Positions 1 through 50,294 of a stretch of DNA of 64,000 nucleotides are shown one piece after another; positions within the stretch are counted from its first letter, which is position 1, and every line of letters starts with the position of its first letter. This DNA is from a virus. The notes under the pieces are model-generated. The model worked only from the letters and a program-made list of their open reading frames with translations. It searched no databases and was not told the DNA's origin. The stretch is taken from the IMG/VR virus record IMGVR_UViG_3300025168_000043, positions 32,377 to 96,376 of that record. One strand, written 5' to 3'. The translations under genes and the position numbers were made by a program.

Positions 1-13
1 ATGGGATTCTGAC

Positions 14-17600: not shown

Positions 17601-18849
17601 AGACGACCGTTGGCGTATCCAAACTAAATTTGAGACACCGATGCTAAACTTTGGATATCTTGGTATGTCAGATATAACATTCAATGGAACAATCGGAAGT
17701 TTGAATGATTATCAAAGAGCAGTTAATAGTGTTGTACCAAGGGGTATGTGGCACCAATTTGGCAGGATCCCGCGCGATGCGGAAGGAGTTTATATTCAGG
17801 TCACTGATATTCCAGATAACTTTATCAATAATCACCCATCTTCTAGTATTATATTTGACCCGGCCGGCAAGTTTGATCTCCGAAATGCTGTTTCAGAGGG
17901 CATGAGAACCTTCTCAATTTTTGCAAAAGGTGGCAGTACTAATTCTGCCGAGGCCATTGATGCTGTAGCTAAAGATTTAAATGGCTATAAAATTCCGCAA
18001 AATATGAAAATTGATAGAAATGCGATTGATAACGCTGCGGGCCGGAAAACTGTGTCAACAACAGACTCTCCATTATCCTTGGTTGATATATGTGGTTTCC
18101 CAACCGAACCAGTTAGAATTGGTGAAATGCCATCATCTAAAACTATATTTGAAGCTGTTGTAGCGGTACCATTTATAGATGTAGATGGAGACAAAGAATT
18201 TTTCAATGTTCCTGTAGCTCGAACCGAGTTCGAAAAACCGTTTTTTGATAAAGCGGCCGGCAACAGTATTCTAAGACAACAAAGATTGATGGAAAAATAT
18301 GTTTTCCCTCCAACATTTGATTTTGTTCAAAACGACGCTGTTGAGCCAATAGCAATGTATATATTTGAGTTTTCTCATAAACTTAGTCAAGATGATTTGT
18401 CGCATATATGGCAAAACCTTTCACCCAAAATTGGAACAAGGTGCGAAGAGGCAATGGCCACAGTTTCGCACCCTCTTCTTGCAAACCAACTCTTGAATTT
18501 TAATGTTCTTGATGCTCTAGAAGCAGATGAGCAAGGCATTAAACCACCAAGGGTTGAGTTCCCCGAAGAACTTCAGTGGATGGTGTTTAAGGTCAAGCAA
18601 CGCGCGAAATCAAATTATTTTAAACAGATCGAAAGCTCCGAAAGAGCAGACATTCCTTTCTATACTTCTAACTGGCCATATGATTTCTTCTCTTTGATTG
18701 AGGTTGCTGATATAGATGCTGAAGTTGAATTTAAACCGACACAAAATAACCTAGATATGAAGAAGCAGAAACGCGAAGCTGCACAGAACGCATTAAATGA
18801 TAGGACTAGTAGAGATGAGGCTGTTGATGTTGGACCAGCGGGGGATTAA
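8668..18849 (+). CDS. Giant baseplate/tail protein with LamG-like (concanavalin) domains and a gp7/tail-protein-I-like segment
   Basis: 3393 aa; DEFRYWK...LGVYYKFNEG...VLDYSG (LamG-like) and IYLYKSKGTEKAFRNLIRCYG (gp7/gpI-like); located in baseplate cluster. Confidence 0.65.
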   Translation: MSIKKLFDSNKTNDILVSTNLEEEVVKNVPELESADNVREQIERINRFIPQVDYSDPANFAVYGSAERYYRDSFHRVATQYPYDGSEEEITRYNNESNYLDLHILENEYPRTLGHVRFPTNNGGGSATNQFGQQTNAANITFFGGPNAIAGGMTTGSFHLQFTGSNYYDTDIYQTDGTLALDRVGSRESNLTYNLPSKGLTVEFWQGTEGNLISATGPFGRQSRHALFDLWNGEASSSAQYGRLTVYASGSSSAFKGIYLNAYSGTVGIQELELLDPAVAAQIPPQYVNTSSPTPGHLAFAFSSGSTLGLTVKTYINGVLTTTTGSSVALNEVTGALRGRIGALLTNPSGTSIGTDMDGYGTSIRSAYDEFRYWKAERTEKEIQQNYWTQVRGGTNNEIANAELGVYYKFNEGITGDATTDTTVLDYSGRITNGTITNYGTDATTTLVRNANLLPERSSLIVAAGAATSEFKDPIIYASHPDVVSALDRLVASGSVHDFENQASIKDSIPSWIIEEDETSGGEELGKLTQILGSYMDTLNLQIESLPTLADNTYLSGSDKPTPFMKNLLSSRGLAVPEIFVDADLLQRFANRSDTEGYTLDINDTKNLIYKNIYNNLIYLYKSKGTEKAFRNLIRCYGIGEDVIRFNAYASNQTFDIQETRQDRVIRKNYVDFNHPDRFDGVVYQRANTGETTGISFFSASSPNNAFAQTAELEVIFPRKMEFANSQYFDTPFVTASLYGKASASADPAIFDAAFSNNPATAPWLVAYAVRTQQNSNDAYFVLDSNLFTNPLTSDIYSNIYDNQKWNLAIRVKSKNWPYSTGSVASGDGAASFGNQEVSFVGYNVENGVVRNSFVLTTSSISSNLGPSLPYRYFVGSQRTNYTGAVGHQTDILASSLRVYTTFLDDDVIKSHALDPENYGTRNPSRNLLFYNDSDDASLNPAIKTTIPESVSLALNWDYSQVTTTDATGRFSVQDASSGSTGLTSRYPQENVLTNVNKQFAGRGQFGVSAYSSTDVISKQFVQSAQQRLPEVVNTNDDVNVLSRDDELYPRDASISQTYYTFEKSMYGIVSQEMINMFSSIVEFNNLIGEVVHKYRGEYKSLRLLRELFFEKIQNNPDLDKFIDYYHWIDSSLNIFLQQFAPASADVSDEIRTIVEDYVLNRSKYQHKYNQIKQGDSGTGTKAGGFDETILEGRVKGTRELQYDWQFGHAPLTNSQTEHSLWWKDRAERNNTAFNTAALIDTAREDILTIIQLFNSASAPSLNDGTGASGIYEGSAYATRRFTRQYKLDTAIVPDIGGGYNYPRNHKPDALFPLMFDQPLDLTNNIEQVNFEKQGMFTLPEEELRPVIKQEKRRFTAINPETPVGTNGATVFRASSVLAGTKFVTPFIIFSSSVSPAGGYGQQWQTYQLKPDFNKEEFAGYHNDSYGDDYEVPMQGPFTNHHVGGNRHRHTDLNKGSDTALNRAEAWELDIGNSEVGAAKARGASDGSINTNMPGSNPNYRRDETAKRPVNTKNIKHRTGSLGTVAMGNYSASYEIVQTTGRTQNNSAFVKSEGIRDNFTISVAGADEVGYIDHVTDYAKPIRRRTEHVIVNRFSAPGGPETAGDSQGGPGLDFEAAELSPYNNLNYRNTTVRDPLETLLSEHSAQFGLRSGSIASPIGYSGSATNVTASFHKVNRNPLHRLEGYDTGSDTPVTGTVFDNYYVQHMIPRSDFQYAWITASSDRFNSAFGAANNVYGYFPYDGLARVSSSANGFRYESAVNFVSASEIGSVPGTITYSTTTTATETLTGRGSLVSKGVYDISGSSGSFAPAANPNDHFIPQTTHLNIGGIYGDLFSTFVGPKVAPFTYLPSRGGNPSAIDKTHDFNSSLTFLTNQVLFGGNLSDPQEFIIGQDREYVTQWVVDTVLGVTPFDKETGTGGYIFNAAGAPYGRLYTSPSAMDNTRFQMFQTLNKTYGRFESTNYVKSVGSIPLAVAYPPEVGFNKYGLGTLTQPISFTNGNPLFTVSNMIETSASRGAGLILNSLLTKRNGYYGHPTWKQIRVGETGLVRYHRKNNYYSHTYDPVIISSQTDPTGGRAKVQSRTENILISQSVVTDRYFPVVFELEARDDQQNSKVLKSTNVVARTSFANDVITFDNQDVVDRLLDADVLEASERKTSYRQIVDDFSIYDSFLDEQKPILQINSLKYRETVYPPRNFAYTSLTRGRNNFSNNFWRDARSDRTWPSTPPANAENLTEYSKTQREKNTNSQGQGSSNVSFQLAPFQSRWALDGLLSTTNQNNLTTLAGYPTGGINANNADGYKPGELQNLYTHFVRNQQDDFEIDRSDDGEIAQLRAGALYARKHINPYTSSVCGMSGMRKQIDISAFIFSGTSYLLLTSSIGAGEAFWDAPNLAGRYEGTSSVFVKERATPFYDDYDAFYSDIKTKTRGRSIIPEFRIEDHIDFYEQNGFDYLTENPALFQFPGVPSQEGYLQNSGYPHFFKIFTNSDFMQHFEVVREDGLKEGGILEPAKVKLRCKAVKKFVPYDGFYPAERTLQLASAFSASYAPLTQLSSSTGAENTYQVAWRTMLKPFFAPGIVYNTIKSGVAVDYPIMTGSYNVGKMIMAGDGASANTGVRMVATASAGIFSNSRNDSKNGLTGLLAGFNIVSHNDGWDYRVPFETVLEPGKYIYGKNIVDDEPSAFAGINVTASWGSSEQGTKYKNMMHNFLASSLDVFIKDGKPTEILSAPQKEFKAVTPGQPYGMRIKMYRSFESGSQQETSGDWGDFQVPQYISGSLTDFTMYSRPSAFGPPVLAGTGSQVMSQQKYCITGSREMTPARGRYASHTPPYFDGESWIDLIYYPYKSFDSGSTGLEVINNTTRTVTVSDLHNLASTEFSSGSAILDYEFGQGSRFGGEGTYVVRWRFDQEALRTNFSTEDTGSTYHGTGSDIGPMGGPWANRWAMHLDASLNIFSKARGVGSLAAEAVSADLAESGLGDGSFNAGDDRWRIQTKFETPMLNFGYLGMSDITFNGTIGSLNDYQRAVNSVVPRGMWHQFGRIPRDAEGVYIQVTDIPDNFINNHPSSSIIFDPAGKFDLRNAVSEGMRTFSIFAKGGSTNSAEAIDAVAKDLNGYKIPQNMKIDRNAIDNAAGRKTVSTTDSPLSLVDICGFPTEPVRIGEMPSSKTIFEAVVAVPFIDVDGDKEFFNVPVARTEFEKPFFDKAAGNSILRQQRLMEKYVFPPTFDFVQNDAVEPIAMYIFEFSHKLSQDDLSHIWQNLSPKIGTRCEEAMATVSHPLLANQLLNFNVLDALEADEQGIKPPRVEFPEELQWMVFKVKQRAKSNYFKQIESSERADIPFYTSNWPYDFFSLIEVADIDAEVEFKPTQNNLDMKKQKREAAQNALNDRTSRDEAVDVGPAGD

Positions 18850-28397: not shown

Positions 28398-29690
28398 ATG
28401 CCTCTTTATAAGTTTGGGGCCGGGGATGTATTTTACAATCAGTTAAGAACATATCCCAGTAGCTCGTTTTATATATATTCGGGTAGCGTTTATTATCAAA
28501 ACAAGTCAACCGAAGTGGGCTCCACTGTTGCAAACGTCAATGGTGTCCCTATTGGCAACGTGAGCTTGTTTGAGCTTAATGTTGACCGCGCCGCAACCTC
28601 TACTGGCAGAATCATCGGTTTATCCTCATCTGTTGGTACACAAAACGTTGTGGATAACGGAACAATATATCCTTTCATAGAAAAAGGGTTATCCAAAGTA
28701 GGCTTCAAAGGTCTTACAAGAAAACAGTTTATCAACGACTATGCCCAAGGCGACGTTATAACCGGCTCCTATTTTATGTCTTCCAGCATAACAAGAAGAT
28801 TGTATGCCTCAACCGCTGGTTTTAATGATACAAATAAAGACGGTGCTGCCTTGCGAAACAGTCTAGATTTTGCAAAACGATTAGGTCCGCACTATAACTT
28901 CCCATCGGGGTCTTCAGCAATTTTTACTAATGTTATTTATATCCCTTCTATTTTTTACGGATCAGAGATTAAGAAAGGCACTGTAGATCTTAAGTTTTAT
29001 ATCACAGGTACTCTTGTTGCCCACTGCCGAGACTCAAGATATGACGGCGCCCTTATTATGCAAGGAGATGCTGATTCTGCTCACTCCACACGCGCAACTG
29101 ATGGTTTGACAGTTGGGTGCGTACTATATAACGAAGGCGCAATAATATTGACCAGTTCCGCCCGTATTTCGGATTTAGCATCTAGTCCAAATATTAAAGC
29201 ATATTCTAATAGAACAAACACCACAACGTCAGATGCAGGTGGAAAATATACTTGGGAGCATTTTGGCCTTGGCTTACCCCAAGGTAATGACACATCATTA
29301 GAGCGCCTAACTACGCAAGCCTTTTTACAAAGCGCATCCTTTGGTTTAGAGTTCGCAGGCACCCACAAAATCCCAACCGTCACAATGCTTGCCAATGCAA
29401 ACCGAGGCGAGCTAAACTATACAAATAATCCAACGTATATTGAGTTCGGCCAAACAACTTACAACCCAGTAACAAGTTCTACATTCTTTGGCGAACAGCA
29501 GTTGAATATCAAGAATATTCACTCTTCTTCCTATTCGGATCCTACTGGAAGCCTAAAGAAAACCACATATATTACAAAGATTGGTATTTACGATGATAAG
29601 AAAAAACTTATTGGTATTGCATCTGTTGCCAAGCCTGTCAAGAAAACTGAAGATAGAGACTTGACATTTAAAATAAAACTTGACATCTAA
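28398..29690 (+). CDS. Virion structural protein, paralog of 27250..28386
   Basis: Shared NY(S/T)(S/N)NPTY, EIKKG(S/T) and YITKIGIYDDKKKLIGIASVAKPVKK...KIKLDI motifs. Confidence 0.6.
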   Translation: MPLYKFGAGDVFYNQLRTYPSSSFYIYSGSVYYQNKSTEVGSTVANVNGVPIGNVSLFELNVDRAATSTGRIIGLSSSVGTQNVVDNGTIYPFIEKGLSKVGFKGLTRKQFINDYAQGDVITGSYFMSSSITRRLYASTAGFNDTNKDGAALRNSLDFAKRLGPHYNFPSGSSAIFTNVIYIPSIFYGSEIKKGTVDLKFYITGTLVAHCRDSRYDGALIMQGDADSAHSTRATDGLTVGCVLYNEGAIILTSSARISDLASSPNIKAYSNRTNTTTSDAGGKYTWEHFGLGLPQGNDTSLERLTTQAFLQSASFGLEFAGTHKIPTVTMLANANRGELNYTNNPTYIEFGQTTYNPVTSSTFFGEQQLNIKNIHSSSYSDPTGSLKKTTYITKIGIYDDKKKLIGIASVAKPVKKTEDRDLTFKIKLDI

Positions 29691-29708
29691 ATATAATCGT
29701 GTTATAAT
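29680..29708 (+). promoter_or_regulatory. Consensus sigma70 promoter (early/middle) for the RuvC-primase unit
   Basis: TTGACA (29680-85), 17 bp spacer, TATAAT (29703-08), with TG extension. Confidence 0.85.
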
Positions 29709-30241: not shown

Positions 30242-31146
30242 TAAAGAATGTTCTTGGACGAGGTTACCAGTCTGGTGATGAACACCTATTCGGCTGTCCG
30301 TTCTGTGGTCATCATAAGAAGAAGATGTCCGTTAATGTGGACAAATCTGTGTTCAAGTGTTGGATTTGTGACAAGTCAGGCCGTGATCTAGGCTACATTG
30401 TCCGCAAGTTTGGAACCAGAGAAGATCGTGACGAATGGTCCAAGTATGACGACCGTGTTGAGATCACAGATTTTGACTTCTTATTTGCGGAGCCTGAAGC
30501 CCCTTCTGAGCAACGCGTTGATTTACCCGAGCAGTTAGTCAGCTTAACGGGCAAGACGCCTTCTGTGGCCTCACAGATAGCTTTAAACTACTTATCAAAG
30601 CGTGGGATCACAAGAGACGACATCCTCAAATGGAAAATCGGTTATTGTCCTGACGGAGAGTATGCTGGTCGTGTGGTGGTGCCATCGTTTAACGAGAACG
30701 GCTATGCAAACTATTTTATTGCACGCTCATACGGCCAAGCTTGGCCAAGATACAAGAACCCACCTGCCTCCCGTGACATTATTTTCAATGAACTGTATGT
30801 AAATTGGGACGAGGACATAATTATAGTAGAGGGCGTCTTTGATGCCATAAAGGCTGGTAATGCAATTCCTCTTCTTGGATCAACGCTTCGCGAGAACTCT
30901 GCTCTTTTTCAAACCATTGTTAAAAGTGGGAATAGGGTGTTTCTGGCTTTGGATGAAGATGCATCCAAAAAAGCACGCAGCATTGCTCGCTTATTACTCA
31001 AGTATGGGGTAGAAGTTGGCCAGATAGATACATCTGGTGTCGAGGATGTCGGAGAGATGTCAAAAGAAGAATTTAAGCACAGGAAAAACAACGCGGCGAT
31101 TATAGAGAAAGACAACTATTTATTGCAAAGGCTTTTTGCCGTTTAA
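30217..31146 (+). CDS. DNA primase (Zn finger + TOPRIM)
   Basis: CPFCGHH...FKCWIC zinc finger; YKNP; IIVEGVFDAI and LALDED TOPRIM motifs. Confidence 0.88.
   Translation: MRAEKLKIIKNVLGRGYQSGDEHLFGCPFCGHHKKKMSVNVDKSVFKCWICDKSGRDLGYIVRKFGTREDRDEWSKYDDRVEITDFDFLFAEPEAPSEQRVDLPEQLVSLTGKTPSVASQIALNYLSKRGITRDDILKWKIGYCPDGEYAGRVVVPSFNENGYANYFIARSYGQAWPRYKNPPASRDIIFNELYVNWDEDIIIVEGVFDAIKAGNAIPLLGSTLRENSALFQTIVKSGNRVFLALDEDASKKARSIARLLLKYGVEVGQIDTSGVEDVGEMSKEEFKHRKNNAAIIEKDNYLLQRLFAV
31114..31123 (+). promoter_or_regulatory. Putative phage late promoter driving the leader-tagged gene array
   Basis: AACTATTTAT within primase 3' end, about 35 nt before 31159. Confidence 0.6.
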
Positions 31147-31158
31147 AGGAATAATGTT

Positions 31159-31413
31159 ATGAAAGTGACTCGGAAACAACTAAAACAGATTATCAAGGAA
31201 GAGTTAGAAGCTTCATTGGTGCAAGAAGCAGAAGGTGAGACGCCTCAAGATGTGGCTGATCGGCTCAAGAATATACCCGCCAGCTTTAGAATGAGTGTCC
31301 TAAACGACTTCCGCAACATGGCTGATGGTGACACAGAGATGGCAGAGTTCTATCCTCACGTTAAAGATCTTGCTGCTTTCGGCAAAGAAGTGCTACGATT
31401 GTTGGGCGCGTAA
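31159..31413 (+). CDS. Putative internal head (cargo) protein with conserved N-terminal leader
   Basis: MKVTRKQLKQIIKEELE...LVQE; SD aagga. Confidence 0.6.
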   Translation: MKVTRKQLKQIIKEELEASLVQEAEGETPQDVADRLKNIPASFRMSVLNDFRNMADGDTEMAEFYPHVKDLAAFGKEVLRLLGA

Positions 31414-31415
31414 AG

Positions 31416-31913
31416 ATGAAAACCACCAGATCTCAGCTAAGACAAATCATCAAAGAAGAAATAAACAGTATGCTGAACCGGCCAAGAACCGCAGAGCAGT
31501 TTCTGAAAATGATCAAGTCTCAGTTCAGGCTCGCGGGAACACGAAAAACTCTTGAAACGATGGCTAAATACTATGACGCAATGATTAAAGCCGCAGCCGA
31601 AAGAGCACCACTCAAGCCCAGTGACCCAAAAGAGATCGCAGCAGAGATTGGCATTGGACAGGATAGTCCTTATCTACAGTGGACAACCTTTCATCTAAAT
31701 AAGCTTCAGCAAGTACCTAGAGAGGCTTACGAAATGCTGCCCGCAAGTGATGAACTCACTGCTATGCATTATGACCGTCTCACAATAAAAGATAAAAAGC
31801 GCGCAGACCGAGATGCAGAGTTATCTCGCCCACGGTCACCGGAAGAGAAAGAAGCCGCTGCTGCCAAGTTCGGCCAAGATATGGCCGCAGGAAAATACGG
31901 TCCACTGGACTAA
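31416..31913 (+). CDS. Putative internal head (cargo) protein with conserved N-terminal leader
   Basis: MKTTRSQLRQIIKEEIN. Confidence 0.6.
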   Translation: MKTTRSQLRQIIKEEINSMLNRPRTAEQFLKMIKSQFRLAGTRKTLETMAKYYDAMIKAAAERAPLKPSDPKEIAAEIGIGQDSPYLQWTTFHLNKLQQVPREAYEMLPASDELTAMHYDRLTIKDKKRADRDAELSRPRSPEEKEAAAAKFGQDMAAGKYGPLD

Positions 31914-31925
31914 GGAATCATATCG

Positions 31926-32678
31926 ATGAAAATCACCAAAAAACTTTTAGAGCAAATGATTGAGGAAGCAGCATCGGAGTATGTCTACGGTATTAAAAAT
32001 CCCGGTCGTGTTGCCAACCAATACAAAATAAAGACAATCAAGAAAGTTATCTTTGAAGAGTTGTCCACAAACCTTAACGAAGATGGCCACGAAGACACAT
32101 CCTCAGCAATAAGAAAGTTGAAGACTTCTATTGAAGACGCAGGAGAAATCCTACAAGGTCTCCAAGCACACCAAGGAGATCTTCCCTCTTGGTGGATGGG
32201 CAAAGTAACTATCGCTGCTGACTATCTTAACAAAGCCAGAGACTACTTCCTTGTTTCCGGTGATGTGATGCAAGAAGAAGAGTTGGACGAGCGATGTCAA
32301 AAAGGTTATAAAACCCACGACACCCAAAAAACAAAACAAATGTTTGGAAAGACTTACCGCAACTGTGTAAAAGCAGAGGGTATGGAAGAGGATGCGATGG
32401 ACGAGATCTTTGGCCTTACCAATAATATCTCCTCTAACATTCTACATCTAAGCAAAGAAGACCGAGCACTTATTGAGCGTGACCTCGAAGAGATCAGAGA
32501 GTTGGCGCAAATGGAAGTGATGGACGAGCGCAAACTAAAACCGACCGAAAAGAAGAAACTTAAACGACTTGAAAAAGAAGTTCCCAAAAAAGACTTTACT
32601 GACCAGTATGGAAAGGAAGGCGAATCTATTTACTATGCCACATTAACTAAAATGGCGAAAAAGGGCAAGAAGAAATGA
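31926..32678 (+). CDS. Putative internal head polyprotein with leader and several modules
   Basis: MKITKKLLEQMIEE; modules separated by LNE, LDE, MEE, MDE. Confidence 0.6.
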   Translation: MKITKKLLEQMIEEAASEYVYGIKNPGRVANQYKIKTIKKVIFEELSTNLNEDGHEDTSSAIRKLKTSIEDAGEILQGLQAHQGDLPSWWMGKVTIAADYLNKARDYFLVSGDVMQEEELDERCQKGYKTHDTQKTKQMFGKTYRNCVKAEGMEEDAMDEIFGLTNNISSNILHLSKEDRALIERDLEEIRELAQMEVMDERKLKPTEKKKLKRLEKEVPKKDFTDQYGKEGESIYYATLTKMAKKGKKK

Positions 32679-33307
32679 AAATTACCAGAGAAAAACTAAA
32701 GCAAATCATCAAGGAAGAACTTGAAACTGCTCTTAATGAACAAACGCCCGCATATTATCAAGCCGGCAAGATTGGCGCAGGTATACCCGGCATTTTTAAA
32801 CGCCTTAGCCCCGTTCCGGACTATCTGGTACAAAGCTATAAAGGAAAAAAGAAAGTCTATAACACGAATAATGGAAATATTGTGGCATTAGATGATAGGG
32901 GCATTCCTTTTGTTTCATATGCTGATGAGATGGAGAAGAACCCCAATGCGGACTACCAATTCGCGATAGATACGCTTAAAAAAAATGGCTATGTAGAAGC
33001 TTCTCTAAGTGTCCCTATGTCTCCGGCAAATCTTGATGCACTCACTCTCGGAACTATTAAAGGGGAAGAGGTCGATCGTGGCTATGTACAAAGAGCGCGC
33101 GCCAACTTTATGAATCAGGACAAAGATATCCCCCGGATTAAGCAAGTCATCGGCAAGAGAGAACTGTCAGATCCAAGTATGCCTAACTGGGACCCCAGCA
33201 AAAATCAAATAGTTTACTTGGGATCACGGACACTTAGTTCCGGAGGTCGGGAAATTTATTTTAAGACATCAAATACTCACAAGTATTATAAAGCATTGGC
33301 CAGATAA
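32675..33307 (+). CDS. Putative internal head (cargo) protein with conserved N-terminal leader
   Basis: MKITREKLKQIIKEELETALNE; ATGA overlap with the previous gene. Confidence 0.6.
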   Translation: MKITREKLKQIIKEELETALNEQTPAYYQAGKIGAGIPGIFKRLSPVPDYLVQSYKGKKKVYNTNNGNIVALDDRGIPFVSYADEMEKNPNADYQFAIDTLKKNGYVEASLSVPMSPANLDALTLGTIKGEEVDRGYVQRARANFMNQDKDIPRIKQVIGKRELSDPSMPNWDPSKNQIVYLGSRTLSSGGREIYFKTSNTHKYYKALAR

Positions 33308-33320
33308 AGGAAATAATATT

Positions 33321-33857
33321 ATGAAAACCACTAAACAACAACTTAGACAAATCATCAAAGAAGAGTTAGAGGTCGTCCTCACAAACGAGGAGGCAGGCGA
33401 ACTCTTTGGCGAAGGCGTTGAAGCTCAGTTAGAAGAACAAGAGTTGAATGAAGACCTTGGTCAACTAGCTAATATGCTTGGCTCAAATCCTGAAGAACTA
33501 ATGATTGTACTCAAAGGCCTTGGTCTCACTGCTGCAAACATCGGAGTCCCAGCAGCCGCCGGCGGAGTTTTGTATAAAATTATAGATATGATAAGGGATT
33601 ACCGGGAACGAAAAGCAGAGCCCGAAGGCGAGCAAATGATGGAGCAAGAAAAGGTTGCTGGTGATGTCGCCCGCGTTGGCAAAAAGCTTGGTGGTGTTCA
33701 AGGTCTTGAAGCTCTTTTGGCAAGCATCAACAATCGTGATAAGTTTGAGGCTGTTTTAGCACAGTTTATTCAGATGGTTGCTAAAGAAAGACTTCAGCCC
33801 AACGATGTTAAAATGGGTGTTCGTAACGTTGCAGCAACGATTCTAAAAGGCAAGTAA
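33321..33857 (+). CDS. Putative internal head (cargo) protein with conserved N-terminal leader
   Basis: MKTTKQQLRQIIKEELE...ELNE...MMEQE; SD aagga. Confidence 0.6.
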   Translation: MKTTKQQLRQIIKEELEVVLTNEEAGELFGEGVEAQLEEQELNEDLGQLANMLGSNPEELMIVLKGLGLTAANIGVPAAAGGVLYKIIDMIRDYRERKAEPEGEQMMEQEKVAGDVARVGKKLGGVQGLEALLASINNRDKFEAVLAQFIQMVAKERLQPNDVKMGVRNVAATILKGK

Positions 33858-34325
33858 ATGAAAGACCTTATGGAAGGCTGGCGTGGATATCTTTCAGAAC
33901 AAGAGGAAGAAGTCGGTGACCCAAAGGGGATAGAGACGTTTGAAGATCTTAAGAAACTTTTAAGATCTATTGAACTTAAAAGAAAGGGCGGCGCCGTTGG
34001 CAAGAAAGCACTTAGTTTTGCTGCGTCTCTTATACCGGGTGGATCAGCAGCAAAAGAGTTGTTTGATAATGCGAAGGATGTTAAAGAATTCTTACAAGAT
34101 TTGTATACAGCAGATGATAACTTTAAAACACAAACTAGGCTTGACACCCTGAACATTGATGATAATGTTTCAAAAATTGTTGATGATCAAGTAGAGGCAG
34201 CATTTCTTAAAGTATTGCCAAATTTAATCGCAGATAAAACTGGACCTATTGGTGATTTTAACATTACTAAAGAATTGCAAGTTTTTCTAGCATCCAAATT
34301 TAATAATACAACAGTTAAAAAATAA
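33858..34325 (+). CDS. Putative internal head protein with a second leader type
   Basis: MKDLMEGWRGYLSEQE; directly abuts the previous gene. Confidence 0.5.
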   Translation: MKDLMEGWRGYLSEQEEEVGDPKGIETFEDLKKLLRSIELKRKGGAVGKKALSFAASLIPGGSAAKELFDNAKDVKEFLQDLYTADDNFKTQTRLDTLNIDDNVSKIVDDQVEAAFLKVLPNLIADKTGPIGDFNITKELQVFLASKFNNTTVKK

Positions 34326-34328
34326 TCC

Positions 34329-34357
34329 TTGACAGTGAGCCTTTAGCAGGTTATAAT
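34329..34357 (+). promoter_or_regulatory. Consensus sigma70 promoter for the 2OG-Fe(II) oxygenase
   Basis: TTGACA, 17 bp spacer, TATAAT. Confidence 0.85.
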
Positions 34358-34375
34358 AATAGTAACGAGGAAAAT

Positions 34376-35140
34376 ATGTCTAAAAGCTTAGTGGCTTCTA
34401 TTGAAGCTCATGATTGTATTAGGACCACCTATTTTAAAATAAGACTATCTGATGAGGTCTTGGCCGGCCTTCAGGAATACTCAGCTAAAGTTTTATCGTC
34501 TCCAAGCGTGTATGAAGATTATACATATAGGTTAGCCGGCCACATAAAAAAGGGTAAACAATTACAAATTCCTTTAGAAACCAAAGAGACAAAAGATTTA
34601 TTAAAAGTTTTATCCTCAGCCACCATACAATATTATAATAATTATTTATCTCGCGTGATGCCAAATCATGCACAAATACCTAAAGAAGAAAATCCATACG
34701 CTCTCAAGGGTGTAGAGGTTCAAGATCTGTGGTTAAACTCATATTTAGCTGGGGACTATAACCCAATACATAAGCATGGAACTGTTTCTCCTGTTGGGAT
34801 GTCATGTTTTATAGTTGTAAGCGTACCAGATAGTATTAAAAATAAAAAACAATCTCATACTGTGGGTAAATCAGGCGGGATTACTGGAAACGATCATTTT
34901 GATGGACACACTTTACTAAAGTGGGGATATAACTTTGGTAGCGACAACGTATTTGATTCTTTAGAATACTCGCAGCAGGATTATGTAAAGCCGGAAGAGG
35001 GTATGATATACTTATTTCCACGATGGATGGATCATATGGTGTGTCCATTCCAAGGTCCGGGGATTAGAGTGACAATGGCCGCTAACATTAGTATATGGAC
35101 AGATAGATATTATAAAATATATAATAATTCTAGTGAATAA
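34376..35140 (+). CDS. 2OG-Fe(II) oxygenase superfamily protein (TIGR02466-like)
   Basis: WLNSY...GDYNPIHKH...YLFPRWMDHMVCPF...RVTMAANI: HxH...H...RxxxxxN jelly-roll signature. Confidence 0.82.
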   Translation: MSKSLVASIEAHDCIRTTYFKIRLSDEVLAGLQEYSAKVLSSPSVYEDYTYRLAGHIKKGKQLQIPLETKETKDLLKVLSSATIQYYNNYLSRVMPNHAQIPKEENPYALKGVEVQDLWLNSYLAGDYNPIHKHGTVSPVGMSCFIVVSVPDSIKNKKQSHTVGKSGGITGNDHFDGHTLLKWGYNFGSDNVFDSLEYSQQDYVKPEEGMIYLFPRWMDHMVCPFQGPGIRVTMAANISIWTDRYYKIYNNSSE

Positions 35141-35143
35141 TCC

Positions 35144-35172
35144 TTGACAACAAGTCTGTAGCAGGTTATATT
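35144..35172 (+). promoter_or_regulatory. sigma70 promoter for the SbcCD fusion gene
   Basis: TTGACA, 17 bp spacer, TATATT; near-copy of the promoter at 34329. Confidence 0.8.
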
Positions 35173-35199
35173 ATAAGTATATTCAAGTAAGGGGTTACT

Positions 35200-41907: not shown

Positions 41908-43881
41908 ATGGCAAATCAAAACAGAAATCCAAGAAATCCAAGATCAGAATTATTTAAATCTCTAACAAGAGTTTTTTCTGGTCCGTTAACAACACGACGC
42001 ACACAGACTGGCCGAAGGATCAGGAGGTACCAGCTAGACAAATATCAGAGTAGATTTACTTCAGCTAGTGGTCAATCCTTTAAAACATTCAGATCGACAA
42101 ATGCATACAATATGCAACTAGGGATAATGAATCAACATAATCGCGCTGAACGATATGTTGATTTTGACCAAATGGAGTACACACCAGAGATTGCGTCTGC
42201 ACTTGATATTTATGCTGATGAGATGACTACGCATTCTTCTTTACAGCCAATGTTGCATATCAAATGTTCTAATGAAGAAATAAAAGCTGTTCTCGATTCC
42301 TTATATCATAATATTCTAAACATTGATCATAATCTTTTTGGTTGGTGCCGTTCGATGTGTAAGTATGGAGATTTTTTCTTATACCTTGATATTGATGATA
42401 AGTATGGTATCAAGACGGGTATCGGACTTCCATCGCGAGAAGTAGAACGCCTCGAAGGCGAGGACGAAACAAACCCAAACTACGTTCAATACCAGTGGAA
42501 CTCTGCCGGCATGACTTTAGAAAATTGGCAGATGGCTCACTTTCGTATTCTCGGGAACGATCGATATGCCCCTTATGGTACTTCAGTCTTAGAACCCGCA
42601 CGTCGAATCTTTCGACAGTTGATTCTTTTAGAAGATGCTATGATGGCTTACCGTATCGTCCGCTCTCCAGAGCGACGAGTAGTTAAAATTGATGTTGGTC
42701 AGGTTCCTCCAAACGAGGTGGAGCAATATGTACAAAAAGTTATTAGCTCAATGAAACGTAATTCTATCGTAGACGAGACAACAGGCCGCGTCGATCTTAG
42801 ATACAACCCTCTTTCAATCGAGGAAGATTATTATATTCCTGTTCGCGGAGATTCTAAGACAGAGATTACATCATTACCCGGTGGCACATTTACCGGAGAT
42901 ATTGACGATGTTAAATACCTTAGAGATAAGTTATTCTCCGCATTAAAAATCCCAGCATCTTATTTAACAAACGCTGAAGGTGCCGATGAAGATAAAACTA
43001 CGCTCGCTCAGAAAGACATTCGCTTCGCAAGAACCATTCAACGCTTGCAGAGAGCAGTTGTTTCCGAGTTAGAAAAGGTTGGTATCATTCACCTTTATAC
43101 TCTTGGGTTTAGAGATGAAGATTTACTTAGCTTTAAACTACAACTTAATAACCCATCCAAGATCTCAGAACTCCAAGAGTTAGAGCACTGGGACAAGAAG
43201 TTCTCTGTTGCAGGAGCAGCCACCGAAGGCTTCTTCTCTCGCCGTTGGGTTGCAGAGCATCTGTTCAATATGTCCCACGAAGAGTTTGAAAGAAATCAAA
43301 GAGAGATCTACTACGATCGTAAATTTGATGCTTCACTTGCAGCCGTTGCAGAAGCAATGCAAGAAGAGGCAGCAGGAGCAGGCCTTGGTGACCTTGGGGG
43401 AGACGAAGGTCTTGGCGATCTCGGTGATGATCTTGGTGATGATCTTGGAGCCGACCTCGGTGATCTTGGTGGGGACGAACCTGCCACCGCAGCGCCAGAG
43501 GAACCAGAGATCGGAGATGATCCGCTCTTAGCAGCACCCGGCCGTCGAGAAGATGAGGGTTATACAACACCCGGCTCGAAAGGAAAAGTATACCGTCCAG
43601 TTAAAAAAGGCAGAGACAATCGAGCAAAGGGTGCAATGAAGCGCCATAGGGCTTCGGTTGCTGGTGTAAATATGGACCCTCGTAAAACTTTTCCCGGTAA
43701 GAGTGGTTATGGAGGCTTAGATTCCTTAGCCAAGGGGATGTTTGAGTCGCGAGAAACTAATTATGACAATGAGTTTGCAATCGAGGAAGAAATTCTACAG
43801 ACCACCAACTTTGAAGTTAAAAGTCTACTAGAAAGTTTAGGTAACTCAACGGAGATTAAAAATGAAACTAAAGCACAATAA
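41908..43881 (+). CDS. Portal protein (T4 gp20-like) with acidic C-terminal extension
   Basis: PEIASALDIYADE, LEDAMMAYRIVRSPERRV, EDYYIPVRG, DDVKYLRDKLFSALKIP. Confidence 0.93.
   Translation: MANQNRNPRNPRSELFKSLTRVFSGPLTTRRTQTGRRIRRYQLDKYQSRFTSASGQSFKTFRSTNAYNMQLGIMNQHNRAERYVDFDQMEYTPEIASALDIYADEMTTHSSLQPMLHIKCSNEEIKAVLDSLYHNILNIDHNLFGWCRSMCKYGDFFLYLDIDDKYGIKTGIGLPSREVERLEGEDETNPNYVQYQWNSAGMTLENWQMAHFRILGNDRYAPYGTSVLEPARRIFRQLILLEDAMMAYRIVRSPERRVVKIDVGQVPPNEVEQYVQKVISSMKRNSIVDETTGRVDLRYNPLSIEEDYYIPVRGDSKTEITSLPGGTFTGDIDDVKYLRDKLFSALKIPASYLTNAEGADEDKTTLAQKDIRFARTIQRLQRAVVSELEKVGIIHLYTLGFRDEDLLSFKLQLNNPSKISELQELEHWDKKFSVAGAATEGFFSRRWVAEHLFNMSHEEFERNQREIYYDRKFDASLAAVAEAMQEEAAGAGLGDLGGDEGLGDLGDDLGDDLGADLGDLGGDEPATAAPEEPEIGDDPLLAAPGRREDEGYTTPGSKGKVYRPVKKGRDNRAKGAMKRHRASVAGVNMDPRKTFPGKSGYGGLDSLAKGMFESRETNYDNEFAIEEEILQTTNFEVKSLLESLGNSTEIKNETKAQ
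43381..43479 (+). repeat. Degenerate tandem (G)DLG/DDLG coding repeat in the portal tail
   Basis: GLGDLGGDEGLGDLGDDLGDDLGADLGDLGGDE; DNA units such as ggtgatgatctt repeated. Confidence 0.75.
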
Positions 43882-44689
43882 AAAGAGAAACACTGCTTTT
43901 TTGTATGAGGCACTTGTCAAAGAACTAACAAAAGCCATTGTTAATAAAGATGTAGAAAAGAAAAATGCTTTAGTTTCTACACTAAAGGAGAATTTCTCTG
44001 CTGGCAAAATCCTCTACAAAGAGATGGAGCTTATTAAAGCCTTGTCTGAAACCAAGAAGGTGGACATGTTCACAGCAGAGCGCCTGCTTTCGGAATCTGT
44101 TTTACGGTATTCTAAGTTGGACGCAGATAAAATATTTGAAGCCCAGTCTAAACTTATTGAAAATATTAATAAAAACTTTGGCAAGAAAGTTTATAGCAAC
44201 TTTGTCCCAAACTACAAACATCTTGCTACTATTTGGCAGTTGTTTACACAAAGCACGTCGGTGAAAGAGAAGGTACTCTTAGAGAAAGCTTTGGTATTTT
44301 CTATGACTGCAAGAGGCAAAGAGCCCGTTAAAGCAAAACAAATGCCTCACGTTGATAAACTAGTATTTAAAACTGTTATTGAAAATTTCAACAAATCATA
44401 TGATGGTGAACTCCTTATAGAGCAAAAAGAATTATTGAATAACTATATTGTTTCCTTCGGCGCTAACGAAGTAGAATTCAAAGCATACCTTAATGAAGAA
44501 CTAGGAAGACTTAAGAACGAAGTCACCATTCTTAAAGAAAAAGAGGTAATGCTTGAAAATAAAGATCTTACCGGTAAGTTGGAAGATGTTAGAGCTACGC
44601 TCGATAGATTCCAGACTAAAAAGGTTAACCCTGCGATGCTAGAAAAGGTCATGCAGGTACAGAAACTTGTAAAGGAATGTGCTGAATAA
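43862..44689 (+). CDS. Hypothetical head-module protein
   Basis: 275 aa helical protein MKLKHNKKRNTAFLYEAL, between portal and protease; SD ggag. Confidence 0.6.
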   Translation: MKLKHNKKRNTAFLYEALVKELTKAIVNKDVEKKNALVSTLKENFSAGKILYKEMELIKALSETKKVDMFTAERLLSESVLRYSKLDADKIFEAQSKLIENINKNFGKKVYSNFVPNYKHLATIWQLFTQSTSVKEKVLLEKALVFSMTARGKEPVKAKQMPHVDKLVFKTVIENFNKSYDGELLIEQKELLNNYIVSFGANEVEFKAYLNEELGRLKNEVTILKEKEVMLENKDLTGKLEDVRATLDRFQTKKVNPAMLEKVMQVQKLVKECAE

Positions 44690-45603: not shown

Positions 45604-45645
45604 CTCGGGCGGGTAGCGCCCGCTAAATGTCGTTTGGAGATAACA

Positions 45646-46260
45646 ATGGGAAAAACACTTTTAAGAGAATATTACGCACTTTGTGATGGTGGTGTCTGTC
45701 AAGACATGCTAACCGAGGATGAGAAGAAACTTATGTCCGCTGGCAAGAAGTTTTTTATGACCGGTTGTATGCAGAAGTTTGACACACCAAACGGCAACGG
45801 ACGCGTGTATTCCAAAAGTATTCTCCAACGTGAAGTGGAAAACTATTGGAAACTTGTCAAGGAGCGCAGAGCACTTGGCGAGTTAGACCATCCAGATGAT
45901 TCAGTCATCAACTTAAAAAACGCATCTCACCTTGTAACCGATATGTGGTGGGATGGCGAAGCCCTTATGGGTAAGGTTGAAATCCTGAATACTCCTTCAG
46001 GCCAGATTCTTAAACAACTTGCCGAGTCAGGCGTAACATTAGGAATCTCATCCCGAGGCCTTGGTTCTGTCCGCGAAGTCCGTGGCACGACAATGGTTGA
46101 AGATGATTTTCAACTTATCTGCTTTGATTTTGTTTCCGAACCATCTACCCCCGGCGCCTTTATGCAGGTGAAAGAGGGGATGCGAGAGCACAAGGAACCA
46201 AACATTTTCACCAAAGCAGACAAAATAAACAGAATCTTAAATGATATTTTGAGAGATTGA
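45646..46260 (+). CDS. Prohead core protease (T4 gp21-like)
   Basis: NGNGRVYS, RALGELDHP, TPSGQIL, GISSRGLGS, DFVSEPSTPGA; ATG 45646 after SD ggag. Confidence 0.93.
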   Translation: MGKTLLREYYALCDGGVCQDMLTEDEKKLMSAGKKFFMTGCMQKFDTPNGNGRVYSKSILQREVENYWKLVKERRALGELDHPDDSVINLKNASHLVTDMWWDGEALMGKVEILNTPSGQILKQLAESGVTLGISSRGLGSVREVRGTTMVEDDFQLICFDFVSEPSTPGAFMQVKEGMREHKEPNIFTKADKINRILNDILRD

Positions 46261-46261
46261 G

Positions 46262-46690
46262 ATGAAAAGAACAGAACTTAAAAAACTAATAAAACCATTA
46301 GTGAAAGAATGCGTCCAAGAAACCATTCTAAACGATGGCCTCTTATCTAACATCGTATCAGAAGTTATGCAAGGGATGGGCAACCAGTTCCTTGTGGAAA
46401 ATAAAGAACAGATTGTTTCTACAATGTCTAATGAAAACAGTGTCCAAATAGAACAGTTGAAAGAAAGACAAAATGAAACAAGAAAACGCCTACTTGACGA
46501 GATAGGTAAAGAAACTTATAACGGAGTGGACCTTTTTGAAGGTACAACACCTATCAAAGATAGCGGAGAATCATCAATAATGAGGCAAGCAAGTCCGCTG
46601 TCCGGACAAGCCCCTGACGATTCTGGAGTGGATATTTCATCTATTGTAGCGTTAGGTGGAAAAAATTGGAAAGCTTTAACAAGTAACTAA
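46262..46690 (+). CDS. Hypothetical head protein with leader-like N-terminus
   Basis: MKRTELKKLIKPLVKECVQE resembles the 31-34 kb leader. Confidence 0.55.
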   Translation: MKRTELKKLIKPLVKECVQETILNDGLLSNIVSEVMQGMGNQFLVENKEQIVSTMSNENSVQIEQLKERQNETRKRLLDEIGKETYNGVDLFEGTTPIKDSGESSIMRQASPLSGQAPDDSGVDISSIVALGGKNWKALTSN

Positions 46691-47187: not shown

Positions 47188-47463
47188 ATGAGCTACCATA
47201 ATAAAAGAGGTAATCGAGGGCGCCCCCCAAGAAAGTTTTTTCACGAAGGGAAACACCCTTCCCACGTTACCACTTACGCCAAAGAAGGCGAACATCCTGA
47301 ACGCACTATAAAGCGATTTCTTAAGAAGTGTAAAAAAGAAAAAGTCATAGAGCAAGTAAGAAAATACGACTATTACGAAAAGCCATCTGTTAAGCGAAAA
47401 AGAGCTAGAGCCCGCCGCCAAGCGGTTCTAAAAAAGCTAAATGAGCAAAACAAGAAGACTTAA
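47188..47463 (+). CDS. rpsU: Phage-encoded 30S ribosomal protein bS21
   Basis: EGEHPERTIKRFLKKCKKEKVIEQVRKYDYYEKPSVKRKRARARR matches the bS21 pattern (E..E..LKRFK......G...E.R....YEKPS..RK). Confidence 0.85.
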   Translation: MSYHNKRGNRGRPPRKFFHEGKHPSHVTTYAKEGEHPERTIKRFLKKCKKEKVIEQVRKYDYYEKPSVKRKRARARRQAVLKKLNEQNKKT

Positions 47464-47532: not shown

Positions 47533-48513
47533 ATGCCAACACTCCTAGAACAAGCTATTATCGACGCAGAAGAACTTAGAGAGGCCGCGTTAAAGAACGC
47601 CGAGTCTACTATTCTGGAAAAGTACAACAACGAAGTAAAGAATGTTGTTGAAACTCTTCTGGAACAAGAAGAAGAAATGGAAATGATGGGCGCGATGGAA
47701 GAGCCCGCCTTCGCTGCTGCTGAAGAAGAAGAGATGTGTCCTTGTCCTGACAAGGAAGAAGAAGAAATGGTTTCTTTTAGCTTAGAAGATCTTAAGAATA
47801 TGGCCGACGACCTAGAAGGCACTTCCGTTATGGGTGAGCCAGAAAGTCAAGAAGATCTTATGACCGGTCTTGGAATGGAGCCCGACGACGAAGACGAGAC
47901 TCTTCCCCTCCAAGAGGAGTTTGAGTTGACTGAGGAAGATGTTGAACTCGATGAAGAGATGATTAAAGAACTCGTTGAGGAATTAGTTGTTGATGTGATG
48001 CCTGTTAAAACTGGCTGGCTCGCAACCCCACAAGGTGAAATGCAATACGCAGAAGAATTAGAATTGGCTAGATTGGCCGGCACGGAGGCCCAAGAGCAAA
48101 TGAAAGCTCTTAAGGATGCCCACGACCGTCTAACCATTACAAACGAATCTTTGACAAGCGACAATAGAAAGCTTGTTGGGGGCATTTTAGCATTGAAAGA
48201 GAAGGTTGAAGAAACCCTCTTGGAAAATGCGAAACTTCTCTATATGAATCAGGCATTGAATAGTGCCTCCCTGAATGAGCGACAAAGGTCAAACGTTGTC
48301 GAGTCTATTCGCAAGGCTGATTCTGTTGAAGAGGCGAAGGTTATATATGAAACCCTTCAAAGCGCAGCGGGCGACTCTACTCGTAGAAAGCCAAAATCGT
48401 TGAGCGAAGCAATCAGTAGGCCTTCATCGACATTGCCAAGACGAAGAAAAGAAAGAGCGCAAGGGGATTCCGTTGCGAAGGATCGATTCCAAATTTTGGC
48501 AGGACTTAAATGA
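47533..48513 (+). CDS. Prohead core scaffold protein (T4 gp22-like)
   Basis: Very acidic coiled coil directly upstream of MCP; many L/I/M-x-E sites; C-terminal RFQILAGLK. Confidence 0.78.
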   Translation: MPTLLEQAIIDAEELREAALKNAESTILEKYNNEVKNVVETLLEQEEEMEMMGAMEEPAFAAAEEEEMCPCPDKEEEEMVSFSLEDLKNMADDLEGTSVMGEPESQEDLMTGLGMEPDDEDETLPLQEEFELTEEDVELDEEMIKELVEELVVDVMPVKTGWLATPQGEMQYAEELELARLAGTEAQEQMKALKDAHDRLTITNESLTSDNRKLVGGILALKEKVEETLLENAKLLYMNQALNSASLNERQRSNVVESIRKADSVEEAKVIYETLQSAAGDSTRRKPKSLSEAISRPSSTLPRRRKERAQGDSVAKDRFQILAGLK

Positions 48514-48554
48514 CAGAATAATCCAATTAAATTAATTAAAAGGAGGTGATTAAA

Positions 48555-50294
48555 ATGTCAATATTAAATAAATTAACTGAAGGAATCGTGAACCGCGATC
48601 TCCGTCAGGAAGGCGATGCCCTTATCTCTAAATGGGAAAAGACCGGTCTCCTCGAAGGACTCAATAATGATTCTTCGAAGAACGGAATGGCCCGACTTCT
48701 TGAAAATCAAGCCAAGCAGCTTCTGAAAGAGGCTTCTTCTATGGCAGCAGGCGATGTGGAAGGTTTTGCTTCCGTCGCATTCCCGCTCGTTCGCCGCGTG
48801 TTCGGTGGTCTTTTGGCCAACGATCTCGTTAGTGTTCAGCCGATGAGTCTCCCAAGTGGTCTCATCTTCTTCATGGACTTCACTTACAGTGACAGTCGTC
48901 TCGGTCTTACCGATGGTGAGTCTGTCTACGGTGGTGGTGTTGTGGCTAAGGGCATCCAAACAGGTGTCACGGATGTTAAGGAAAGTGGTGGTGGTTTCTA
49001 CAACCTTGCCAATGCTTACTCGCATCCTACTGCCTCTGTGACTGTCCAGATGGACAATGTTGTTGTCGCCGGTTCAACCGTTGCGGCTACCACTACAGAT
49101 GCAAACAAGAAGCTGATTCGTTTCGACCCGGACATTCTTGGTGATAGTACAAACCGTATTGCTGTTTTCAAAGGCGACAATGTTGTTGGTACTGATCTTC
49201 CAAATCTCAACAGAGATATGGTGACTGCAATCGAGGCAACGGCTGGTACGTTCAACCTTGGTAACGGTACTCAAGCTCGTCGTCTGACTTTCATCGATGC
49301 CGATGACAAGTTGAACGTCGTTTTCTTCAGAACTGGTGGCGCTATTACAGATCCAACCAGTACACAGACTCTCGTTCTTAGTTACCCAATTGCCGATAAG
49401 TTCGACAATGGTGGAGCTACTCCGGGTTCTGTGGTCGGTGGCGATCCTTGGGGCCTTGAAGAAGCTACTAATGCTACTCAAGCTTCCTCTGCATCAGGCG
49501 CTGGAGCCAAAGATGTCATCCCTGAGATCGACATTAAGGTGGACTCGGTTGCTGTGACAGCGATGACCAAGAAACTGAAGGCCAAATGGTCGCCAGAACT
49601 CGGTCAAGACTTGAATGCATACCACAACCTCGACGCTGAAGTTGAGTTGACCTCGATCCTGTCGGAGCAAATTGCTCTTGAGATCGATCGTGAGATCGTG
49701 AACGACTTGATCCAAGGTGCAACTGCTGGTACATTCTACTGGTCGCGCTCTCCGGGCCTCTTCGTGAACCGCACAACTGGTGTTGAAATCGGCGCTGCTT
49801 CGGCTGCTCCTGACTTCACTGGTACGGTTTCCGAGTGGTATGAAACCCTCATTGAGACCATCAATGATGTGTCGGCTCGTATTCATGTGAAGACTCTTCG
49901 CGGCGGTGCAAACTTCCTCGTGACCTCACCTGAAGTTGCTAACATCCTTGAGTTCACCGCTGGCTTCCGTGCTAGTGTGACTGCTGACTCCGATCGCGGT
50001 ACCGCAGGTGCAATCAACGTCGGTTCTATCTCTAAGAAGTTCGACATCTATGTCGATCCTTACTTCCCACGGAACGTCGTACTCGTCGGCCGTAAGGGTG
50101 GTAGCTTCCTTGAGTCGGGCTATGTTTACGCTCCGTATGTGCCCCTACAGGTCACGCCAACTATCTTCGGCACCGAGGACTTCGTACCTCGTAAGGGCGT
50201 CTTGACGCGCTACGCCAAGAAGATGGTCCGTCCTGATATGTACGGTCTGGTTATTTGTCGCGGACTCCTTGGTGAAGCTGGTGCAACTAGCTAA
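48555..50294 (+). CDS. Major capsid protein (T4 gp23-like)
   Basis: KWEKTGLLEGL, ARLLENQ, PLVRRVF...VSVQPMSLPSGLIF, KLKAKWSPELGQDLNAYH, YAPYVPL, PRKGVLTRY; SD aggagg, ATG 48555. Confidence 0.96.
   Translation: MSILNKLTEGIVNRDLRQEGDALISKWEKTGLLEGLNNDSSKNGMARLLENQAKQLLKEASSMAAGDVEGFASVAFPLVRRVFGGLLANDLVSVQPMSLPSGLIFFMDFTYSDSRLGLTDGESVYGGGVVAKGIQTGVTDVKESGGGFYNLANAYSHPTASVTVQMDNVVVAGSTVAATTTDANKKLIRFDPDILGDSTNRIAVFKGDNVVGTDLPNLNRDMVTAIEATAGTFNLGNGTQARRLTFIDADDKLNVVFFRTGGAITDPTSTQTLVLSYPIADKFDNGGATPGSVVGGDPWGLEEATNATQASSASGAGAKDVIPEIDIKVDSVAVTAMTKKLKAKWSPELGQDLNAYHNLDAEVELTSILSEQIALEIDREIVNDLIQGATAGTFYWSRSPGLFVNRTTGVEIGAASAAPDFTGTVSEWYETLIETINDVSARIHVKTLRGGANFLVTSPEVANILEFTAGFRASVTADSDRGTAGAINVGSISKKFDIYVDPYFPRNVVLVGRKGGSFLESGYVYAPYVPLQVTPTIFGTEDFVPRKGVLTRYAKKMVRPDMYGLVICRGLLGEAGATS

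Follow-up and report, generated by a model that had tools for sequence, protein, structure and literature searches.

N-terminal tags on unrelated small proteins of an uncultured marine T4-like phage: a candidate capsid-targeting propeptide system with two classes

An array of six tagged genes

In this study, we analysed a 64,000-nucleotide stretch of DNA (hereafter the window; positions 32,377 to 96,376 of the IMG/VR record IMGVR_UViG_3300025168_000043) from an uncultured, marine T4-like phage, and we describe an array of six consecutive genes in it whose products begin with one of two short peptides, here termed tag 1 and tag 2. The record as a whole is a 96,376-bp fragment, about 53% complete, with nearly all of its genes on the plus strand. 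The initial annotation, made from the sequence alone, had pointed to five consecutive genes with a common leader followed by complete divergence, and all five open reading frames (ORFs) are present, with the coordinates and N-termini that it gave. They lie on the plus strand between 31159 and 33857 and start with MK[VTI]T[RK]xxL[KRE]Q[IM]I[KE]EE, the remainder of each protein, its cargo, being unrelated to the others and belonging to a different cargo family. A sixth gene had been set apart on account of its different leader; the leader does differ, but the gene is not an outlier and belongs to a second widespread tag family. The genes of the array are as follows.

31159..31413, plus strand: g1, 84 aa, tag 1, N-terminus MKVTRKQLKQIIKEELE; the cargo is a singleton family and the mature part has an isoelectric point (pI) of 4.5
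31416..31913, plus strand: g2, 165 aa, tag 1, N-terminus MKTTRSQLRQIIKEEIN; basic cargo, pI 9.1
31926..32678, plus strand: g3, 250 aa, double tag, the first copy degenerate (MKITKKLLEQMIEE)
32675..33307, plus strand: g4, 210 aa, tag 1, N-terminus MKITREKLKQIIKEELE; basic cargo, pI 9.3
33321..33857, plus strand: g5, 178 aa, tag 1, N-terminus MKTTKQQLRQIIKEELE; acidic cargo, from a family with seven members in relatives
33858..34325, plus strand: g6, 155 aa, tag class 2, N-terminus MKDLMEGWRGYLSE

Related phages were searched for both tags in 285 metagenomic loci gathered in all, over which the tag hidden Markov model (HMM) was run. A scan of this kind, using the common leader, had been proposed in the initial annotation, and it detected tag 1 in 482 copies, found in 422 distinct proteins from 180 loci. 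Nearly all copies (475 of 482) are located at an ATG, GTG or TTG start, which is a pattern well outside what chance would give, and 19 are internal to an ORF by more than 60 residues. The first sample, 80 loci fetched via the primase gene, contained 135 tag copies, all on the primase strand and all at the start of an ORF. The codon and family counts were made on a subset of 107 distinct tag-1 proteins. The conserved positions in these proteins are M1, K2, T4 (95), L8 (105), I11 (93), I12 (107), E14 (106) and E15 (103). In the corresponding DNA, Leu8 is encoded by six codons and Ile12 by ATT (52) about as often as by ATC (50). As synonymous sites vary freely while the residues are near-invariant, selection acts on the tag peptide and not on the DNA. 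The same freely varying synonymous sites rule out an explanation of the tag at the level of the mRNA or as a translation signal. The cargo of the 107 proteins falls into 73 families, 55 of them singletons, and is mostly acidic, with a median pI of 4.75 and 83 of the 107 below pI 6.

Tag 2, the family to which g6 belongs, has the consensus MKLL[FM]ENWRK[YF]LNE. Over the same 285 loci we found 62 copies in 61 distinct proteins from 44 loci, 60 of them at a start codon, with W8 (60/61), [LIV]12 (56/61) and E14 (55/61) as the conserved positions. The two classes occur together: for 56 of the 62 tag-2 copies, tag 1 is present at the locus as well, and the two then invariably share a strand; 26 copies directly adjoin a tag-1 gene.

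None of the array proteins has a significant match in Pfam or PHROG (E<0.001, the threshold applied to both), and the Pfam matches on other tagged proteins are limited to families of unknown function (PGDYG, DUF6240, DUF6321 and DUF5661). A search for g4 in Atlas found nothing (predicted local distance difference test score, pLDDT, 0.44). In the product of g3, the degenerate tag is followed by a 20-aa linker (conserved as AASEYVxGxKxPxRVANxYKI), a second tag core (KKVIFEEL), a helical-hairpin domain with the signature EDGHED...LPSWWM...RDY and two further modules. From residue 38 onward this protein is 80% identical to a homologue in which a single tag stands ahead of the same domain, and the double module of tag, linker and tag also heads unrelated cargo in the protein P0116. 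The domain with this signature is widespread (793 cluster representatives at E<=0.001). The AlphaFold2 (AF2) model of g3 is all-helical, with a pLDDT of about 90 in the hairpin, and its comparison with the PDB by Foldseek gave no fold match at E<=0.001. In some public metagenome ORFs (P0011, P0012, P0016 and P0124) the tag is repeated internally three to five times, each time with an initial Met; polyproteins, gene fusions, recoded stops and errors of gene calling are all possible explanations.

A strict back-translated tag-1 pattern was found in at least 120 IMG/VR stretches and had a single match, on a short contig of a metagenome-assembled genome (MAG), in 185,579 prokaryote species genomes (596 Gb); the tags are virus-specific. 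The contig with this sole match (L290; PBSV01000031.1, from an Opitutia MAG, 15.9 kb) also has three tag-2 ORFs; it probably comes from a phage and ended up in the MAG by binning, or else it is a hint about the host. The tag-1 profile had no match in T4 (at E<=10), RM378 or Pelagibacter phage HTVC008M, and tblastn searches of 50,697 phage records with g5 and with a three-tag protein were equally without a match. Among cultured phages, a shortened tag was found in Flavobacterium phage immuto alone, whose gp190 starts MKKSQLRQIIKEAL. By its capsid protein the phage analysed here has as its nearest cultured relatives this same phage immuto (47%), Microcystis phage Mel-JY01 and Rhodothermus phage RM378. 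The complete relatives have genomes of 172-190 kb, each with 2-12 tag copies in a few clusters, and the label of jumbo phage in the initial annotation is therefore wrong. An uncultured phage record of 484 kb has about nine tags.

The tag register, the prohead protease and the capsid-protein site

The two tags share one register, consisting of an aliphatic residue ([LIV]) at position 12, a free residue at position 13 and Glu14, which corresponds to the rule L/I-x-E of the T4 prohead protease gp21. In both classes P3 and P1 are conserved and P2 is variable, and this sequence match predicts a propeptide of 14 aa. Conserved hydrophobic residues also occupy P7 and P4 (L8 and I11 in tag 1, W8 and Y/F11 in tag 2), and the pattern common to both tags can thus be written as hydrophobic-x-x-hydrophobic-[LIV]-x-Glu. 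In the non-tag ORFs of the same loci, the background frequency is 2.7% for [LIV]xE at residues 12-14 and 1.5% for the full pattern. Four genes of the head module bear on this register; in their description and below a slash marks the position of a known or predicted cut.

45634..46260, plus strand: prohead protease of the T4 gp21 family (phrog_207, E 3e-53; 30% identity to T4 gp21, E 4e-24)
46262..46690, plus strand: conserved head-module protein of 142 aa (h142), directly after the protease; N-terminus MKRTELKKLIKPLVKE/C
47533..48513, plus strand: scaffold, encoded where T4 has gp22, with many [LI]xE sites
48546..50294, plus strand: major capsid protein, made with an N-terminal propeptide; cleavage is predicted after the Glu codon 48729-48731, ...LLENQAKQLLKE/ASSM (...AKQLLKE/ASSM)

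The protease is presumed to be the processing enzyme of the tags. The predicted site in the major capsid protein is conserved as LL[KR]E/A in 57 relatives and is aligned by BLASTP with ...FLTE/AEIGG of T4 gp23, which is the known Glu65 cleavage site. Tag 1 (KQIIKE/E) closely resembles this predicted capsid-protein site (...QLL[KR]E/A). The N-terminus that the initial annotation had given for the gene directly behind the protease (46262-46690), MKRTELKKLIKPLVKECVQE, was found as quoted; it follows the same pattern of hydrophobic-x-x-hydrophobic-hydrophobic-K-E as the tags, and h142 is a candidate prohead core protein. The scaffold is the presumed docking partner of the tags. In 25 relatives, the N-terminus of the protease keeps LL[RT]E[YF] together with a conserved DLLTE, and both motifs could be sites of self-cleavage, comparable to LIE-9 of T4 gp21.

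The cargo differs from other proteins of these phages in its content of the cleavage motif. From residue 21 onward, the ratio of [LI]xE to [LI]xD, a similar motif that the protease would not cut, is 0.77 (confidence interval 0.66-0.89) in tag-1 cargo and 0.59 (0.43-0.73) in tag-2 cargo; the other genes at these loci, small acidic ones included, have ratios of 1.16-1.27. In the scaffold, the protease and a 275-aa protein (h275), [LI]xE is over-represented, which is what one would expect of core proteins that are chopped up. Encoded after the portal (43862-44689), the 275-aa protein has about 11 [LI]xE sites per copy in 19 relatives (observed/expected 2.1), and it is a candidate prohead core protein bound for degradation. 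A gene for ribosomal protein S21 (phrog_21469, E 1e-8) lies between the protease and the scaffold, at 47188-47463, and its position is conserved in relatives.

Genomic setting, expression signals and cassette turnover

The array is situated between genes for replication and recombination, and the signals and genes around it, up to the end of the head module, are listed here.

29680..29708, plus strand: sigma-70-type promoter of perfect sequence (TTGACA-17-TATAAT), followed by the RuvC-like and primase genes; it marks the upstream limit of the early unit
29714: RuvC-like resolvase, preceded by baseplate and very large structural genes
30217: DnaG-type primase
31115..31122, plus strand: ACTATTTA motif (AACTATTTAT, 31114-31123) in the 3' end of the primase gene, about 44-45 nt before the ATG of the first tag gene
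34329..34357, plus strand: sigma-70-type promoter, likewise of perfect sequence (TTGACA-17-TATAAT), followed by the oxygenase gene; it marks the downstream limit of the array
34376: 2-oxoglutarate/Fe(II) (2OG-Fe(II)) oxygenase
35144: sigma-70 promoter (11/12 match) ahead of SbcCD
35200: SbcCD-like fusion
40317: large terminase subunit
41908: portal, the first gene of the T4-type head module, which continues with the gp21-type protease (45634), the ribosomal protein S21 gene, the scaffold (47533) and the major capsid protein (48546)
3' of the head module: adaptor and tail sheath

Two statements of the initial annotation concern the expression of the array, namely that a late-type motif (31114) precedes it and that it is flanked by genes driven from sigma-70 promoters, and both were borne out: the perfect promoters at 29680 and 34329 bound the array, and the motif is strand-biased, is found ahead of structural genes and recurs at related loci. 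In the genome, ACTATTTA occurs 19 times in forward and twice in reverse orientation, and 12 of the 19 forward copies lie 15-70 nt upstream of a plus-strand start. The genes that it precedes include those for the baseplate wedge, the scaffold, the sheath and other structural proteins and also the array itself, and at 17 related loci it is located upstream of the first tag gene that follows the primase, at a distance of 41-56 nt. Judging from the kinds of genes it precedes, we infer that ACTATTTA is a late promoter. The T4 late promoter TATAAATA was also considered and shows no association with gene starts here. No convincing terminator was found in the gap between the primase gene and the array, and early read-through into the array from upstream is therefore likely.

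In several relatives (L084, L093/L094, L097, L106 and L114), tag-1 genes directly precede or follow the protease gene, within the module that extends from the portal to the capsid protein. For 223 tag ORFs from the pattern-derived loci we determined the nearest recognisable neighbour, which is the 125-aa gene after SbcCD in 38 cases, SbcCD in 28, the protease in 15, the terminase in 10, the primase in 9, h101 in 8 and h142 in 3, so that the protease, h101 or h142 is the nearest gene for 26 of the 223.

The turnover of tagged genes can be followed by comparison with a close relative (L001), whose primase shares 94% amino-acid identity with that of the window. In the relative, an unrelated tag gene takes the place of g1, and a tag gene of 193 aa is present that the window does not have. 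Its homologue of g3 has 206 aa instead of 250 and lacks a 134-nt stretch (32389-32522), which represents the gain or loss of a module within a gene. The breakpoints between the two sequences coincide with the borders of genes or with repeated promoter cassettes. The array is a hypervariable cassette locus. The tag-coding DNA of non-orthologous genes can be identical at up to 34 of 35 nt; in view of the codon data, recombination at the tags is a plausible side effect rather than a selected function. Two near-identical sigma-70 cassettes (AATAATCCTTGACA...GGTTATA[AT]T), at 34316-34358 and 35136-35180, flank the oxygenase gene of the window. The relative has one such cassette only, and g6 and the oxygenase gene are absent from it, which looks like the insertion or deletion of a cassette bounded by promoters. 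This pattern is reminiscent of the promoter-mediated shuffling of modules in T4-type phages.

Two very large structural ORFs, of 2351 aa (2-4432, beginning before the window) and 3393 aa (8668-18849), are located in the baseplate/fibre region, where most of the neighbouring genes are without a PHROG match.

Probable capsid targeting and the competing explanations

It has been established that the internal proteins of T-even phages, among them IPI, IPII, IPIII and Alt, are otherwise unrelated and have only an N-terminal capsid-targeting sequence (CTS) in common (PMC3012670; PMC9026906). For the T4 CTS (Mullaney & Black 1996; reviews PMC9026906 and PMC3012670), mutational studies assign residues 4 and 7 mainly to targeting and residues 8 and 10 to processing, and propeptides of the T4 type have a length of 10-19 aa (PMC9026906). 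According to the back-translated pattern and the annotation of the T4 record, the internal proteins IPII and IPIII of T4 start with MKTYQEFIAE, in which Y4 is at P7, F7 at P4, I8 at P3 and E10 at P1, and the start of T4 gp24 (MAKINELLRE) follows the same pattern. The tags described here resemble the CTS in that each is a short, predicted N-terminal propeptide on unrelated, fast-evolving proteins that ends in the gp21 rule L/I-x-E, with the hydrophobic determinants of targeting in corresponding positions at P7 and P4. The two phages also agree in encoding a protease of the gp21 type, a scaffold and a capsid protein whose propeptide is cleaved off (the cleavage being predicted in our case), and in both the tag genes are found in hypervariable loci outside the head module; in T4, ipII and ipIII are beside denV and e. 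There are differences as well. The tags have 14 residues rather than 10, two classes of them coexist, a genome can hold up to 12 tag genes, the cargo families within one uncultured marine clade number hundreds, and double tags and candidate multi-tag polyprotein ORFs are present.

Since both tags end in the cutting rule of the phage's head protease, they most likely act like the T4 address label. We consider it probable that they form a propeptide system for capsid targeting comparable to that of the T4 internal proteins, with two classes of tag. According to this model, each tag would form an amphipathic helix of about 14 residues, and its hydrophobic residues 8, 11 and 12 would dock the protein onto the scaffolding core during prohead assembly. 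The gp21-type protease would then cut after Glu14 (I-K-E/E in tag 1 and L-x-E/ in tag 2), and the freed cargo would stay in the head and be delivered with the DNA. Transcription of the array would start at the promoter motif of the structural-gene type, with a probable contribution of read-through from the early promoter upstream. The initial annotation had likewise proposed a protease-cut tag resembling the T4 CTS on variable cargo, and this proposal receives partial support: the register, the second tag class, the likeness to the capsid-protein site, the adjacency to the protease and the upstream motif are in agreement with it, whereas the acidity of the cargo is not, and its principle had already been established for T-even phages.

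Several observations weigh against this model. The tags have no detectable homology to MKTYQEFIAE, so that the likeness is one of pattern only. Most of the cargo is acidic, whereas IPII and IPIII are basic and DNA-associated, and acidic proteins are not obviously favoured inside a DNA-filled head. The majority of the arrays are among replication and recombination genes, outside the head module. Neither a sigma-factor region-2 domain (PF04542, Sigma70_r2) nor, with the RM378 sigma factor as query, a late sigma factor was found in this 53%-complete fragment. Finally, the capsid protein is itself enriched in [LI]xE, which means that depletion is not general to proteins exposed to the protease, and for this reason the depletion seen in the cargo is suggestive only.

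An alternative is that the tags are a docking helix shared for another purpose, such as binding to a single host or phage partner (for instance a chaperone, a polymerase or a takeover hub), oligomerisation or the timed degradation of early proteins, the Phi-x-E register being coincidental or serving a different protease. The location of most arrays between primase, SbcCD and terminase genes is consistent with such a helix, as are the early expression that read-through from the sigma-70 promoter at 29680 would give and the small size and acidity of most cargo, which are shared by many early host-takeover proteins. However, it would leave unexplained why two unrelated tags have the same [LIV]12-x-E14 register together with the hydrophobic residues of the T4 CTS at P7 and P4, why tag 1 mimics the cleavage site of the capsid protein, why tag genes are beside the protease gene in several relatives and why a motif of the structural-gene type stands ahead of the arrays, and we regard it as unlikely.

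Less likely again is that the tags do target the prohead, with a cargo that is auxiliary core or filler material, useful in assembly and then broken down or expelled when the head matures, as with gp67, gp68 and gp22 of T4. This would account for the presence of the same pattern on the core-like h142 beside the protease, for the enrichment of [LI]xE in the scaffold, the protease and h275 and for the multi-tag polyprotein ORFs in public data. The hypervariability of the cargo, with 73 families among 107 proteins and turnover at 94% primase identity, would on the other hand be unexpected for assembly factors, and the depletion of the cleavage motif, instead of its enrichment, suggests that the cargo is meant to survive the protease. 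An idea to which we attach very little probability is that the tag segment is mainly a DNA-level recombination handle for the swapping of cassettes and that the peptide is incidental. Tag segments of non-orthologous genes are indeed almost identical in places (34/35 nt), and the breaks in synteny with close relatives coincide exactly with the borders of genes (at g1, at the 193-aa gene and at g6 plus the oxygenase gene). However, the free variation of synonymous sites around near-invariant amino acids (six codons for Leu8, ATT and ATC nearly equal for Ile12), the in-frame position of the tag at the start codon (475/482) and the existence of a second tag that follows the same peptide logic without any likeness in DNA all speak against it.

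Returning to capsid targeting, a wider form of the model can be put forward tentatively, at somewhat less than even probability: in an abundant marine clade of T4-like phages, a two-tag code with a fixed register of 14 residues may load hundreds to thousands of unrelated small proteins, including multi-tag polyproteins that would be cut in the prohead, for delivery to the host. These proteins would then represent a large, unexplored arsenal of injected effectors.

Comparable processing has been described for the ejection or inner-body proteins of the giant phages phiKZ, 201phi2-1 and SPN3US, in which head-internal proteins are cut after Glu by a gp21-related protease, and conserved N-terminal residues of paralogues have been suggested to serve in prohead targeting (PMC5694885). 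The propeptides of these inner-body proteins are mostly more than 100 residues long, with motifs of the form A/S-x-E (PMC5694885), and the proteins form paralogous families, in contrast to the unrelated cargo behind a portable 14-residue tag described here. There is also a likeness to the cargo-loading peptides of encapsulins, which are short and portable and bring diverse cargo into a shell with the HK97 fold. These peptides differ in usually being C-terminal, in not being cut off by a protease and in acting in a cellular nanocompartment without DNA packaging or delivery. Our literature search found no paper that contains 'QIIKEE' or that links capsid targeting with marine phages, nor any that describes these tags, their 14-residue register, the coexistence of two classes or the scale of the system in an uncultured marine clade.

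The class of T4 internal proteins includes anti-restriction and host-takeover factors. If the proposed function is correct, a simple sequence rule would pick out proteins that are carried in the capsids of widespread ocean phages and delivered with the DNA, and hundreds of 'hypothetical' genes of marine phages would become one defined and testable class. The two tags would also be new portable signals for the packaging of foreign proteins. Furthermore, the targeting logic of T4 (hydrophobic residues at P7 and P4, Leu or Ile at P3 and Glu at P1) would be older and more general than the T-even phages.

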